Below, in pieces: positions 4,869-12,160 of a stretch of DNA of 64,000 bases (position 1 is its first letter; every line of letters starts with the position of its first letter). This DNA comes from Candidatus Micrarchaeota archaeon (lineage in GTDB: Archaea; Micrarchaeota; Micrarchaeia; Norongarragalinales; Norongarragalinaceae): positions 23,586 through 87,585 of the forward strand of contig JBDRBT010000006.1 of NCBI GenBank assembly GCA_043822385.1, given 5' to 3'. The notes under the pieces are model-generated. The model did not search any database and had not been told where the DNA came from. It saw only the letters and a list, made by a program, of their open reading frames with translations. Both the position numbers and the translations under genes were made by a program.

Positions 4869-5483
4869 ATGAAGGAATTATTTTTTCCAGGTGATTTAGT
4901 AAGCGACAAGCCTTTGTCTGGAGAAGGATTGTTTGTTGAAGACGGAAAAACTTTTGCTTTAACAATCTTGTTGCATAACGACGGGCGGACTGTTCCGTTA
5001 AAGGGTTATTACGTGCCTGAGCGCGGTGATTACGTTATTGGAGTTGTTACTGACGAGCGTTTTAGTGGTTACACTATTGACTTGAATTCGCCTTACGCGG
5101 GAACAGTTAGTTCCAGGGATTTGAGGGCTGAATTTCAAGTTGGAGACGTTATTTCTGCTAAAGTTTATTCTGTTAATGAAGTGCATGAAGCATTGTTATC
5201 TGAACCCCGCTTGTTTGAGGGTGGTGAAGTAATTGAAGTCGAGGCAGTTAAAGTTCCTAGAGTTATAGGAAAGCACGCTAGCATGCTTCAAATACTCAAG
5301 GATTACACTAAAGCTGAAATATTTGTCGGCAAGAACGGACGCATTTATTTGCGCGGAGGAAACTCTTTGCTTGCTTCTCTTGCTATTAACAAGATTTCTA
5401 GGGAAGCTCACTCGAGTGGGTTAACTGATCGAATAATGAATTTCTTGCAGAATGAATCAAAGAATGGTGAAAAAAATGAGTGA
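4869..5483 (+). CDS. rrp4: exosome complex RNA-binding protein Rrp4 (S1 + KH)
   Basis: An S1-like segment (PERGDYVIGVVTDERFSGYTIDLNSPYAGTV) is followed by a KH-like segment (VIGKHASMLQILKDYTKAEIFVGKNGRIYL). It lies directly upstream of rrp41. Confidence 0.8.
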   Translation: MKELFFPGDLVSDKPLSGEGLFVEDGKTFALTILLHNDGRTVPLKGYYVPERGDYVIGVVTDERFSGYTIDLNSPYAGTVSSRDLRAEFQVGDVISAKVYSVNEVHEALLSEPRLFEGGEVIEVEAVKVPRVIGKHASMLQILKDYTKAEIFVGKNGRIYLRGGNSLLASLAINKISREAHSSGLTDRIMNFLQNESKNGEKNE

Positions 5484-10271: not shown

Positions 10272-10431
10272 CCCGCTGTAGCTCAACTTGGCAGAGCACC
10301 TGACTGTAGAAAACTCTAAAAAAGTATTTTTGGGTTTGCAGTATTTGCTTCAAAAACTCCGAGTTTTTGTTGAAGAGTGCTTTTTCAAGCGCGAAATCAG
10401 GGTGTTGCCAGTTCAAATCTGGCCAGCGGGA
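10272..10431 (+). tRNA. tRNA-Tyr (anticodon GTA) with an ~86-nt intron after position 37 (intron about 10310..10395)
   Basis: Acceptor CCCGCTG/CAGCGGG with C1:G72, D-arm GCTC-AACTTGGCA-GAGC, anticodon stem CCTGA ... TCAGG interrupted after CTGTAG, T-arm GCCAG-TTCAAAT-CTGGC, discriminator A. Intron boundaries are uncertain by 1-2 nt because of the A-run. Confidence 0.75.
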
Positions 10432-10463
10432 TTTTTTTCCTTTTTTTTGTAAAGTGATCTTTT

Positions 10464-10886
10464 TTGAAATGGGAACGGCCGGGCTGGTTTGCGAAAAAAG
10501 AAAGCGTTTTAGGTTGTAAGGAAGTAAAAACGTGGGTTAAAGGAGATAAAGTCTTTTTTTTAGTTAACAATAGTGTTTTTCACCCGGATTTAGCTCTAGC
10601 TCGATCAAATCATTTTGTGACGACTATTGCGTATTCAAACCTGATTAGCTCTGTTGCTTCAACTAAGCGCTTCGAGCTTCAACGCAAGGAGCTTCGCAAG
10701 CTTATTGCAGAACATGAAGAAACGGCTTTGTCTTTAGTAAGAAAAGGTTTAGTTTTTAATAAAAAGTTTAATGTTGGTTCGAAAATTCTTGGTTTGTTCG
10801 AGAAAGCAGGTGGTTTGACTAACGCGCAAATCGAGTTTTCAGTTCCTTTAAATCACTTGATTCTTAGTTTTCCTAACGAACGATAA
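10464..10886 (+). CDS. hypothetical protein (no ATG; TTG or GTG start)
   Basis: 140-codon open frame in AT-rich DNA between tRNA-Tyr and the homing endonuclease gene. It has no in-frame ATG, so it may be a pseudogene or non-coding. Confidence 0.35.
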   Translation: MKWERPGWFAKKESVLGCKEVKTWVKGDKVFFLVNNSVFHPDLALARSNHFVTTIAYSNLISSVASTKRFELQRKELRKLIAEHEETALSLVRKGLVFNKKFNVGSKILGLFEKAGGLTNAQIEFSVPLNHLILSFPNER

Positions 10887-10935
10887 AAAGAACTTATTTT
10901 ACAATATGCGCTACTATTAATTTGCCTCACCGGAA

Positions 10936-11613
10936 TTGAACCCGCGAAAAACGTTTAAGTGGCTGCTTTTTTTGTTTATTGTGAACGAGCGGGATGTTTA
11001 TTGGTGGTTAGGCGTAACTCACGCTGATGGCTATTTTTATTTTAAGAATAACAAAGTAAGAGAGTTGCGTTTGAGAGTAAGTATTTGTTCGTTATCAATG
11101 CTTAAAAAATGGGGTAAAATTATTGATAAATTAACGGAAAAGAAGCACCGGTTGTTACTTGAAAAAATGTATGATCCACGCAGTGAGCGAAAATTCGACC
11201 AATACTTAGTTCGCGAGGGAAGTCAAGCAAGCCTTTCTTTGCTTAACTCCTTATTTTTGAAAAAGAAAATTAAACTTACTAGTATTGTCGTGCCTGATTG
11301 TTGTTATCATTCAAATGTTAGGAGCGGAGCTTATTTGGCTGGAATAATAGATGGGGACGGGTGTATTCAATTAAGAAAACACTATGTAGACGGTCATTTA
11401 GAGCGGTTATTGAAAATAACAACTAATAATAAAAAACACTTGGAACAAATACAATCCCTTTTGAGGAGTGTGGGTCTTTCTTCAGGGTATATTACAGATT
11501 ATGTGCGACACTTTGATTTATGGGTTTACTTGAATAAGAAAAGTATTGGTTGGTTCAAAAAATACGTAGTTCAAAACTTAGCGATAAAAAGAAAAGCCTT
11601 TAGGTTCAAATAA
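10936..11613 (+). CDS. free-standing LAGLIDADG homing endonuclease (double-motif, monomeric type)
   Basis: Two LAGLIDADG motifs are present: WWLGVTHADGYFYF (degenerate first motif) and YLAGIIDGDGCIQL (canonical second motif). The two motifs are the usual distance apart for a monomeric enzyme, and the 225-aa size is typical. Confidence 0.8.
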   Translation: MNPRKTFKWLLFLFIVNERDVYWWLGVTHADGYFYFKNNKVRELRLRVSICSLSMLKKWGKIIDKLTEKKHRLLLEKMYDPRSERKFDQYLVREGSQASLSLLNSLFLKKKIKLTSIVVPDCCYHSNVRSGAYLAGIIDGDGCIQLRKHYVDGHLERLLKITTNNKKHLEQIQSLLRSVGLSSGYITDYVRHFDLWVYLNKKSIGWFKKYVVQNLAIKRKAFRFK

Positions 11614-11631
11614 TGGATACAGCGCCTTGGT

Positions 11632-11736
11632 GCCTTGGTAGAAGTTATTACCTCTAAAGGAAATAACTGCCGAATGTAGTGGTTAGCACACGAGCTTGTC
11701 GAGCTTGTATCCCGGGTCCGAATCCCGGCCAAGGCG
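11632..11736 (+). tRNA. tRNA-Asp (anticodon GTC) candidate with a ~33-nt intron at a non-canonical position (about 11642..11674, between nt 10 and 11)
   Basis: 3' two-thirds fold cleanly: D-arm GTGT-AGTGGTTA-GCAC (after splicing), anticodon arm CGAGC-TTGTCGA-GCTTG, 4-nt variable loop, T-arm CCGGG-TCCGAAT-CCCGG, acceptor 3' CCAAGGC plus discriminator G. The only 5' acceptor complement (GCCTTGG, followed by U8 A9 G10) lies ~40 nt upstream, implying an intervening sequence. An extra copy of GCCTTGGT lies immediately 5' (11624..11631). Confidence 0.5.
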
Positions 11737-11782
11737 CTCTCTTTTTTTAACTTTTTTCCCCCTAAATTCATTAGTTGATTGA

Positions 11783-12160
11783 ATGACTGAATCTTCTTGC
11801 CCTAAAAGAGTTAATGGTTTTGAGCCGCACGTAACTCGTTTTTTGAATTTTGTTAAGAAAGCTAAACCCGCCGACTTTGTTAACGGTGGAGAAAAATTCA
11901 AGGGTTCTTTTTATTCTTTAAAAAAAGATTTTTCTTTACATCCAGAAAAAACAAAGGAAAAAACGTTAAAAGTAGTTGAGGATTTGGCTTCAGAAGTTTT
12001 AATGAGAGCCCTTGATTTTGATAGGTCTTTATCCGTTTCTAGCGAGTTGACTAACCGTACTGAAGACGAGTTTGAAGCGTTTGTGCGTAGTGTTTTTATT
12101 AATTGGAGTAACACTCAATCATTTAGGCGAGAGTTAAGAAAGAAATTTGAATTGCATTAA
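11783..12160 (+). CDS. hypothetical protein
   Basis: 125-aa ORF with no recognisable motif. Confidence 0.4.
   Translation: MTESSCPKRVNGFEPHVTRFLNFVKKAKPADFVNGGEKFKGSFYSLKKDFSLHPEKTKEKTLKVVEDLASEVLMRALDFDRSLSVSSELTNRTEDEFEAFVRSVFINWSNTQSFRRELRKKFELH

Follow-up and report, generated by a model that had tools for sequence, protein, structure and literature searches.

An ORF for a LAGLIDADG protein in a Candidatus Micrarchaeota archaeon stands free of any intron or intein, directly 5′ of a tRNA-Asp gene whose D-stem is interrupted by a short, ORF-less BHB intron. The explanation that fits best, to which we assign a little less than an even chance, is that this free-standing, probably active, monomeric endonuclease gene is passed on in physical linkage, as a single unit, with a tRNA-Asp allele that an intron protects. 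The arrangement bears on how tRNA introns that contain no ORF and occupy unusual positions arise and spread in archaea. The window, that is, the whole stretch of DNA that was analysed, is 64,000 nt long (GCA_043822385.1, contig JBDRBT010000006.1, positions 23,586-87,585, forward strand); its relevant features, in window coordinates, are as follows.

10272..10431, plus strand: tRNA-Tyr(GUA); Rfam tRNA, 49.6 bits; ARAGORN with introns allowed
10464..10886, plus strand: ORF140; no ATG, TTG start; NCBI hypothetical protein ABH803_00895
10929..10936, plus strand: octamer ACCGGAAT; A[CG]CGGAAT in most loci of a 12-locus upstream alignment, in which variants occur
10954..10959, plus strand: TATA-like box, TTTAAG here and TTTAT(A/C) in most relatives; 27 nt upstream of the GTG codon
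10981..11613, plus strand: free-standing gene for a probable LAGLIDADG homing endonuclease; 210 aa, GTG start, open frame back to TTG 10936
11621..11630, plus strand: leader copy (‘decoy’) of the 5′ acceptor strand, AGCGCCTTGG; inverted repeat I18
11632..11641, plus strand: exon 1 of tRNA-Asp(GUC), GCCTTGG UA G, tRNA positions 1-10; manual model
11642..11674, plus strand: BHB intron of tRNA-Asp, 33 nt, in the D-stem between tRNA positions 10 and 11
11675..11736, plus strand: exon 2 of tRNA-Asp, with D-loop, GUC anticodon arm and T-arm; 3′ acceptor strand 11729-11735, discriminator G 11736
11743..11749, plus strand: T7 run, a likely archaeal terminator as read from the sequence

A first-pass annotation had placed an intact, double-motif LAGLIDADG ORF at 10936-11613. 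The open frame has exactly this extent, and the likely start is GTG 10981, the first codon of a 210-aa protein, in agreement with NCBI protein MFH1779688.1 and with homologue N-termini. The annotation had suggested a profile search and a structure prediction as checks, and both upheld its assignment. Pfam LAGLIDADG_3 (PF14528) matched the C-terminal domain at 34.5 bits (E=2.4e-8) against a curated cut-off of 22.5 bits. Motif 1 (WWLGVTHADGY) and motif 2 (AYLAGIIDGDGCIQ, ...IIDGDGC...) each retain their acidic residue; motif 2 is invariant across the family, and the motif 1 Asp is present in every family sequence that covers the region. The AlphaFold2 model (pLDDT 94.1, pTM 0.90) contains two alpha-beta-beta-alpha-beta-beta-alpha LAGLIDADG domains, as in the DNA-binding saddle of this superfamily. 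Its closest PDB structures are I-AniI, the bI3 maturase, I-Tsp061I, PI-PfuI and I-DmoI (Foldseek E = 4e-8 to 1e-5 for I-AniI, I-Tsp061I, PI-PfuI and I-DmoI), and WhiA is also among the matches. The product is probably an active, monomeric LAGLIDADG homing endonuclease. With dN/dS of 0.14-0.17 among homologues, a range that excludes comparisons within clade A because synonymous sites are saturated there, the family is by this measure under purifying selection.

To our knowledge, known archaeal homing endonucleases are located inside rRNA introns or inteins. Here, Pfam and Rfam profile searches found no rRNA, group I intron or intein near the ORF, in agreement with its original description as free-standing, and no Intein_splicing or Hint match rose above threshold in the 210-aa stand-alone protein. 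Across the family, the ORF lies within a BHB or group I intron in none of 12 loci. A TATA-like box precedes the gene. The spacing between the TATA-like box and the start codon is kept in most of the 12 loci in the upstream-region alignment, and the short distance from box to GTG suggests that the mRNA is leaderless. About 24 nt upstream of the box lies the conserved octamer, which is in tandem in clade B. Counts gave no clear enrichment of the octamer elsewhere in the window or at other loci; its candidacy as a general tRNA promoter element was rejected, as the single further occurrence was upstream of the tRNA-Tyr of locus L063.

The tRNA-Asp gene eludes standard searches. Rfam covers only 11673-11728 of it at 28.9 bits, just under the cut-off of 29, and ARAGORN mis-calls it. 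The exon/intron model was therefore reconstructed by hand and is consistent with 11 homologous loci, which bear out the tRNA-Asp candidate with a non-canonically placed intron that had first been annotated here. With the 33 nt removed, the exon junction reads GCCTTGGTAG joined to TGTAGTGGTTAGCAC... At the junctions, a central 4-bp helix pairs tRNA nucleotides 5-8 with intron nucleotides -6 to -3 and is flanked by two 3-nt bulges on opposite strands, which hold the splice sites, and the inner helix has 7 bp. Covariation supports this structure strongly: 87% of cells are paired, 27 are changed on both sides and none of 500 shuffles did as well. Compensatory pairs occur at alignment columns 5:35 and 7:33, the central helix is 97.7% paired, and six of six inner-helix pairs are changed on both sides, while register controls fall to 27-54% paired. 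The minimum free energy (MFE) fold agrees with the BHB (z = -4.2). By all these sequence comparisons, the 10/11 intron is a canonical archaeal BHB intron.

A second RNA feature accompanies this intron. The leader copy is complementary at 10 of 10 positions to 11729-11738, which comprise the 3′ acceptor strand, the discriminator and two trailer bases, and it forms the outer stem of the MFE fold. Over 11 loci it covaries with the tRNA 3′ end (83% of cells paired, 0/500 shuffles as good). All 11 alleles with a 10/11 intron possess it, and it is missing where that intron is missing, in L010 and L059. That the first of the two acceptor-strand copies might be the true tRNA 5′ end was considered and rejected: U8, R9, G10 and a D-stem are obtained at every locus only if the second copy is taken. 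No long T-run separates the ORF stop from tRNA-Asp, although T5 runs are present inside the ORF, and we infer that the T7 run downstream terminates both the tRNA-Asp transcript and any transcript reading through from the endonuclease gene. Leaderless transcription of tRNA-Asp from a TATA within the 3′ end of the ORF would leave the leader copy out of the RNA, and would count against a single unit.

Relatives that carry the ORF away from tRNA genes had been named in advance as evidence against mobility. The opposite was found: in 12 of 12 distinct family loci the ORF lies directly 5′ of tRNA-Asp on the same strand, abutting or overlapping it, and its other neighbours vary. Every one of these tRNA-Asp genes has an intron in the D-arm, at 10/11 in 11 cases and in the D-loop in L010. 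In the window, the ORF ends 18 nt before tRNA-Asp and its stop lies 28 nt from the intron; an endonuclease ORF next to an ORF-less 10/11 intron is the layout at 11 loci. The leader copy begins 8-40 nt beyond the ORF or overlaps it, and in clade B the ORF reads across exon 1 and on into the intron. Within endonuclease clades, the intron sequences are homologous. Some downstream sequences had seemed to begin mid-tRNA, which raised the idea of an ORF in a giant tRNA-Asp intron or of a split tRNA; this was abandoned, as the 5′ exon was found within the last 50 nt of the ORF. A universal terminal repeat, in the form of an inverted tRNA-Asp 3′ end upstream of the ORF, was likewise rejected: L007 and L023 alone gave a significant signal, and the window a marginal one.

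The first-pass annotation set the ORF between two tRNA genes. Its location is as described, and the tRNA-Tyr gene does contain a long canonical intron (86 nt, 37/38 site, about 10310-10395); as a partner of the endonuclease, however, tRNA-Tyr falls away, since tRNA-Asp is the sole constant neighbour. The same tRNA-Tyr is found upstream in L001, L002 and the endonuclease-free L059, and elsewhere the upstream neighbour is a 5S rRNA, a minus-strand tRNA or a protein gene. Judged by this gene order, tRNA-Tyr is a local neighbour in one sub-clade and not part of the module. The window, L001 and L002 share the gene order exosome genes, tRNA-Tyr, ORF. Long vertical inheritance is its simplest explanation, and it counts against a mobile unit. 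ORF140 exists as annotated, with no ATG, and occupies a spacer of ~500 nt that syntenic relatives are without; nothing supports it as part of the system. It matched only itself among 1.84 billion (1.84e9) representative proteins, belongs to no Pfam or NCBIfam family and does not occur at L001, L002 or L059, which are syntenic. Its hexamer coding score (0.198) is borderline: decoys reach at most 0.167, and real genes score at least 0.276. The suggestion that it is a decayed second endonuclease was rejected, as no LAGLIDADG-profile or DNA similarity extended beyond a 28-nt A-rich stretch. ORF140 is an orphan of uncertain reality as a gene, probably unrelated to the endonuclease.

Presence and absence of the endonuclease are polymorphic at a homologous locus. 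In the window, L001 and L002 the gene follows tRNA-Tyr; in the syntenic L059, tRNA-Asp lies further downstream of tRNA-Tyr with neither endonuclease, 10/11 intron nor leader copy, and no LAGLIDADG remnant was found at that locus. This relative, like the 10/11 position of the intron, its canonical BHB fold and the leader copy, goes beyond what the first-pass annotation had noticed. L059 was the one informative empty site found via Rrp42, alongside four uninformative loci, and a search for empty sites with the neighbouring 481-aa protein gave only 2 matches. A D-arm intron accompanies the endonuclease in 12/12 cases versus 0/1 without it (Fisher p about 0.08, with a single endonuclease-free allele). 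Use of the old tRNA-Asp promoter by the endonuclease was considered and rejected; similarity to the L059 upstream region was not significant, with a short L022 match as the exception.

The family is also rare and patchy. It comprises 13 proteins in 5.8e9 clusters, versus >120 close Micrarchaeota Rrp42 clusters, and only one close match was found among GTDB species representatives. Eleven of 12 copies are intact; the twelfth, L024, has lost its start and acquired an in-frame TAA, which makes it a pseudogene, and its tRNA-Asp retains the intron. Rarity, patchiness and this degenerate copy are signs of a selfish life cycle of invasion and decay. Endonuclease identity does not track host relatedness: identities are 54% versus 55% where host proteins stand at 81% versus 62% and 55% versus 39%. 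On viral contigs, no close family member or matching tRNA-Asp was found, which counts against the mobile unit proposed below.

The unit that we propose would comprise the TATA-like box and leaderless ORF, then the leader acceptor-strand copy, then tRNA-Asp with its short ORF-less 10/11 BHB intron. At the DNA level, the enzyme would cut tRNA-Asp alleles free of both endonuclease and intron; the cut would fall within the conserved 5′ portion of the gene, at position 10/11 or close to it. Repair from the carrier copy would then move the endonuclease gene, the nearby intron and the leader together, and the carrier tRNA-Asp would be protected because its intron splits the target site. At the RNA level, covariation and folding support pairing of the leader copy with the 3′ acceptor strand, which would free tRNA nucleotides 5-8 for pairing with the intron and thereby form the BHB; after splicing, the cloverleaf can form. 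The logic would be that of collaborative homing in phages, but applied to an archaeal intron that the host splicing endonuclease excises. In its strictest form, the proposal holds that endonuclease and ORF-less 10/11 intron are a collaborative-homing unit, in which intron-less tRNA-Asp is cut at the intron site and repair copies both. Such a unit would also exemplify a wider class of LAGLIDADG genes at tRNA 5′ ends, with the decoy as an RNA adaptation. We offer this form tentatively, as conceivable but on balance unlikely.

Collaborative and trans homing by free-standing endonucleases have been described in phages, where co-conversion carries endonuclease and intron together and, in the collaborative type, the enzyme's site is split by the intron (PMC2790892). 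In the pairs F-CphI/psbA intron and T4 MobE/nrdB intron, a free-standing endonuclease gene likewise stands beside a gene with an ORF-less intron (PMC2790892). Both pairs belong to phages; their introns are self-splicing group I introns of protein genes, and their enzymes are of HNH or EndoVII type. The Micrarchaeota unit, by contrast, lies in a cellular chromosome beside a tRNA gene; its BHB intron is excised by the splicing endonuclease of the host, and its enzyme is a LAGLIDADG protein with a putative target. For the Micrarchaeota ARMAN-2, the splicing endonuclease has broad substrate specificity (PMC5829648). T4 SegB is likewise encoded by a free-standing gene, within a tRNA gene cluster; it targets a conserved motif of the tRNA T-loop and promotes the inheritance of its own gene along with neighbouring tRNA genes (PMC2330249). 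It differs in belonging to the GIY-YIG family, in being part of a phage genome, in involving no intron and in not being fused to the 5′ end of one particular tRNA. Closer in protein type are I-DmoI, I-Tsp061I and I-PorI, which share fold and size class (two-domain monomer), archaeal origin and BHB introns in stable RNA genes; their ORFs, however, lie inside rRNA introns, and the Micrarchaeota ORF lies outside, upstream of a tRNA with an ORF-less intron.

A rather unlikely alternative, though one with several observations behind it, is that a free-standing homing endonuclease gene inserts where the promoter meets the tRNA 5′ end, and that the 10/11 intron and leader copy are an independent feature of the tRNA lineage. 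Such a site would offer strong transcription, an mRNA 3′ end made by tRNA processing and one conserved half-site. Distant LAGLIDADG ORFs do abut or overlap the 5′ ends of other tRNAs, among them archaeal tRNA-Asn, tRNA-Tyr and tRNA-Met. Distant bacterial LAGLIDADG genes precede an intron-less tRNA-Leu, in a position between it and tRNA-Cys; this counts against the unit and means that an intron is not required for the tRNA 5′ niche. L010 has the endonuclease without a 10/11 intron, which also weighs against the unit, and tRNA introns are abundant in DPANN archaea anyway. Independence sits poorly, however, with a D-arm intron that begins no more than about 10-20 nt into the tRNA in all 12 family members, with its absence from the single endonuclease-free relative and with intron homology that follows endonuclease clades.

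Quite improbable, in our estimate, is domestication, either as a maturase-like chaperone for 10/11 splicing of pre-tRNA-Asp or as a WhiA-like DNA-binding regulator of the locus. I-AniI, bI3 and WhiA are precedents for the recruitment of LAGLIDADG proteins to RNA folding or DNA binding, and their presence among the structural matches speaks for such a role, as do strong purifying selection, strict linkage to one tRNA and the conserved upstream octamer as a candidate binding site. But bI3 and WhiA have lost their catalytic residues, and the Micrarchaeota family keeps both. The family is very rare among Micrarchaeota, a canonical BHB should need the host splicing endonuclease only, and, as indirect evidence, the dead L024 gene still stands beside an intron-bearing tRNA-Asp; the domesticated RNA-processing role floated in the first-pass annotation is unlikely on these grounds. 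Very improbable is another of the annotation's suggestions, a mobile-intron remnant, here an ORF once inside the tRNA-Asp intron that was moved out by rearrangement and now decays as a passenger: adjacency to an ORF-less intron, the clade B overlap, duplicated acceptor-strand copies, the inverted tRNA 3′ ends of L007 and L023 and the one pseudogene would suit it, but no locus has the ORF inside an intron, nearly all copies are intact at dN/dS about 0.15, and the start and its spacing to the TATA-like box ~27 nt upstream are conserved.

If the endonuclease and its tRNA-Asp allele do travel as one unit, an endonuclease gene at a tRNA 5′ end with an ORF-less intron nearby would provide a specific path, open to test, by which co-conversion could spread introns, and collaborative homing, described for group I introns of phages, would then include archaeal introns spliced by the host. 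In its strictest form, the proposal would give archaeal BHB tRNA introns their first mechanism of mobility at the DNA level. The covarying leader copy, for its part, suggests a way for a pre-tRNA with a D-stem intron to offer a canonical BHB even though that structure draws on part of the acceptor strand; the decoy strand encoded by the leader would then be an RNA adaptation that permits such an intron. The enzyme could also serve as a new meganuclease scaffold whose target is a tRNA gene. Finally, the layout of an ORF at a tRNA 5′ end recurs in distant DPANN and bacterial LAGLIDADG genes, so the niche may be general, and the Micrarchaeota gene would exemplify a wider, undescribed class of LAGLIDADG genes at tRNA 5′ ends in DPANN archaea, CPR and other bacteria.

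The endonuclease gene lies in a metagenome-assembled Candidatus Micrarchaeota genome, amid ordinary chromosomal genes (proteasome alpha, SBDS, exosome subunits, L37ae and RNA polymerase). Its product is 100% identical to NCBI MFH1779688.1 ("LAGLIDADG family homing endonuclease"). GTG 10981 was taken as the start codon: it fits the N-termini of homologues and the NCBI annotation, and a TATA-like box lies 27 nt ahead of it. The protein matches Pfam LAGLIDADG_3 above the cut-off, with further sequence-profile matches; an acidic residue is retained in both LAGLIDADG motifs and both catalytic Asp are kept. An AlphaFold2 model (pLDDT 94.1, pTM 0.90) contains two alpha-beta-beta-alpha-beta-beta-alpha domains, and its nearest PDB structures are monomeric LAGLIDADG enzymes and maturases (I-AniI, bI3, I-Tsp061I, PI-PfuI, I-OnuI and I-DmoI). 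The gene is free-standing: an Rfam scan of the window shows neither rRNA nor a group I intron, and the ORF has no intein context. Profile, motifs and predicted fold thus bear out the first-pass annotation of a free-standing LAGLIDADG ORF near intron-containing tRNAs. The locus reads as follows:

10272-10431, + strand: tRNA-Tyr(GUA), 86-nt intron at the canonical site (Rfam, ARAGORN)
10464-10886: ORF140, an orphan ORF
10936-11613, + strand: endonuclease open frame
10981-11613, + strand: endonuclease coding sequence from GTG, 210 aa
11621-11630, + strand: leader copy of the tRNA-Asp 5′ acceptor strand, AGCGCCTTGG
11632-11641, + strand: tRNA-Asp exon 1, GCCTTGG-UA-G
11642-11674, + strand: tRNA-Asp intron, 33 nt, between tRNA positions 10 and 11
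11675-11736, + strand: tRNA-Asp exon 2

Among the 5.8 billion clusters of the database searched, the endonuclease family accounts for 13, at 29-54% identity (12/13 at 40-54%). Retrieved contigs and a metagenome scan yielded 12 distinct loci, the window included. On the first-pass reading, homologues lacking a tRNA association would argue against mobility. The 12 loci include none: in 12/12 the ORF sits immediately 5′ of a co-oriented tRNA-Asp. In clade A (window, L001, L002, L008, L022) its stop codon falls 10-40 nt ahead of tRNA-Asp. Clade B loci L023, L024 and L025 also abut the tRNA closely, and in four others the ORF continues past exon 1 and ends in the intron or in exon 2 (L006 4637-4689; L007 4046-4059; L009 930-973; L010 1506-1528). 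These four have no endonuclease stop codon ahead of the tRNA, so leader removal at the tRNA 5′ end would leave a stop-less endonuclease mRNA if ORF and tRNA are, as presumed, co-transcribed. Upstream neighbours vary: tRNA-Tyr in the window, L001 and L002; 5S rRNA in L009, L010 and L025; a minus-strand tRNA in L006; and protein genes in L007, L008, L022, L023 and L024. The first-pass interpretation is therefore partly supported: the endonuclease is free-standing, but the tRNA-Tyr neighbour is incidental and tRNA-Asp is the constant partner.

Several other features surround these genes. A conserved octamer, A[CG]CGGAAT (window 10929-10936), lies ~24 nt upstream of the TATA-like box and is in tandem copies in L006, L007, L009 and L025; a similar tandem pair precedes tRNA-Tyr in the endonuclease-free locus L063 (14134-14155). 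The tRNA-Asp 3′ end (acceptor 3′ strand and T-stem) recurs in inverted orientation ~100-120 nt upstream of the ORF in L007 (3305-3327) and L023 (about 1889-1903), each at p <= 0.003, and marginally in the window (10930-10945, p = 0.04); the remaining loci lack it. An A-rich 28-nt stretch close after tRNA-Tyr (10487-10515) resembles the endonuclease ORF 3′ end, which lies shortly before tRNA-Asp (11577-11606; p about 0.015); the likeness may be due to chance or to duplication of a promoter-like element. Just downstream of the L006 module, the 5S rRNA (4888-5063) measures 176 nt against the usual about 114-120, which implies a ~56-nt insert, possibly an intron. L007 encodes a 393-aa splicing endonuclease nearby. 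In the window, synteny with relatives ends directly after tRNA-Asp, and the 125-aa ORF that follows (11783-12160, NCBI ABH803_00910) is a singleton without a family match. ORF140 was dropped as a component of the system: its sole match among 1.84 billion representatives is itself, it has no assigned family and does not resemble the endonuclease, L001, L002 and the syntenic endonuclease-free relative L059 all lack it, and its coding score lies between decoys and real genes.

Rfam detects only half of tRNA-Asp(GUC) (11673-11728) and ARAGORN mis-calls it; the exon model was read against 11 homologous loci. The intron folds as a canonical bulge-helix-bulge (BHB), in which tRNA nt 5-8 pair with intron nt -6 to -3 and the splice sites occupy two 3-nt bulges, followed by an inner helix. 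Pairing holds in 87% of cells over 11 loci, with 27 cells changed on both sides; 0/500 shuffles did as well, and shifted registers gave 27-54%. All 11/11 loci with this 10/11 intron repeat the 5′ acceptor strand in the leader. Its complement comprises the 3′ acceptor strand and, beyond that, the discriminator and 1-4 trailer bases that vary by locus; in this helix 83% of cells are paired and the trailer pairs covary (0/500 shuffles as good). At minimum free energy (-50.9 kcal/mol, z = -4.2), the window precursor folds with the leader:3′-end stem, and its true 5′ strand takes part in the BHB. The copy is missing from just two tRNA-Asp genes, the same two that have no 10/11 intron: those of L010, which has a D-loop intron, and L059. 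We infer from these sequences that the copy may be a decoy permitting a D-stem intron although the BHB requires part of the acceptor strand.

T-loop introns of similar hairpin make-up occur in tRNA-Asp of L006, L009, L010 and L059 and tRNA-Tyr of L002 and L063. In L010 another tRNA, around 1640-1860, has one as well, giving two alike introns in adjacent tRNAs. The recurrence looks like an intron family dispersed across tRNA genes.

Is the endonuclease a host gene or a selfish element? Its dN/dS of 0.14-0.17, computed where synonymous sites are unsaturated, points clearly to purifying selection. An essential maturase role is disfavoured by L024 (373-kb contig), where an in-frame TAA interrupts the endonuclease gene and the start codon is missing, yet the intron-bearing tRNA-Asp and leader copy are retained. 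The family is also very rare, with 13 clusters versus >120 close Micrarchaeota Rrp42 clusters and 1 close match among 185,579 GTDB species representatives. Endonuclease identities (window-L001 54%, window-L002 55%) are out of step with host relatedness: Rrp41 shows 81% versus 62%, and a 276-aa neighbour 55% versus 39%. Related genomes reached via Rrp42 homologues supplied one syntenic endonuclease-free locus, L059, with the order 498-aa gene, tRNA-Tyr, unrelated 166-aa membrane ORF, tRNA-Asp (GCCTCGA-TG-GTGT-AGTGG...); it has no 10/11 intron, leader copy or LAGLIDADG remnant. The endonuclease thus shows both presence/absence polymorphism and a pseudogene.

The evidence best fits a free-standing homing endonuclease gene that is coupled to a tRNA-Asp allele bearing the intron, with a single allele (L059) on the endonuclease-free side of this association. 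The target would likely be the conserved 5′ part of intron-less tRNA-Asp, and the intron would shield the carrier's own gene. Because intron and leader lie within 10-60 nt of the ORF, both could be co-converted along with it. Collaborative and trans homing are known from phages (PMC2790892), and the locus shares their logic with a putative target and presumed activity; it is probably of the collaborative-homing type. The tRNA-gene setting recalls T4 SegB, whose gene has tRNA genes around it and whose recognition site is a tRNA motif (PMC2330249). Splicing endonucleases of the Micrarchaeota take non-canonical introns as substrates (PMC5829648). Full-text searches covering part of the journals turned up neither an archaeal LAGLIDADG gene described as abutting a tRNA gene nor an account of homing tied to a BHB tRNA intron, so novelty is provisional.

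The ORF-abuts-tRNA layout recurs in 21/47 loci of two scans (L012-L058). In other DPANN archaea, distant double-motif LAGLIDADG ORFs (25-37% identity) abut or overlap a tRNA 5′ end on the same strand: tRNA-Asn (L012/L032, ORF stop 2833, tRNA 2852), tRNA-Tyr (L037/L038, stop 2387, tRNA 2415) and tRNA-Met(CAU) (L026, ORF 435-1157, tRNA from 1143). In Patescibacteria, Omnitrophota, Planctomycetes and others, such an ORF separates tRNA-Cys from a tRNA-Leu that lacks an intron, and these loci contain no group I intron (bacterial set: L014-L019, L029, L034, L035). Bacterial L013 (529-1214) and L030 (2001-2696) have a LAGLIDADG ORF that adjoins or enters a group I intron (Rfam 55-60 bits; the L013 intron lies in tRNA-Pro) and may be another pairing of free-standing endonuclease and intron. 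In a related Micrarchaeota, SRP54 is split by an intein containing a LAGLIDADG_3 domain (L062 2415-5528). The pre-tRNA leader of the tRNA-Asp locus carries an unusual RNA adaptation, in a layout that has equivalents in other lineages.
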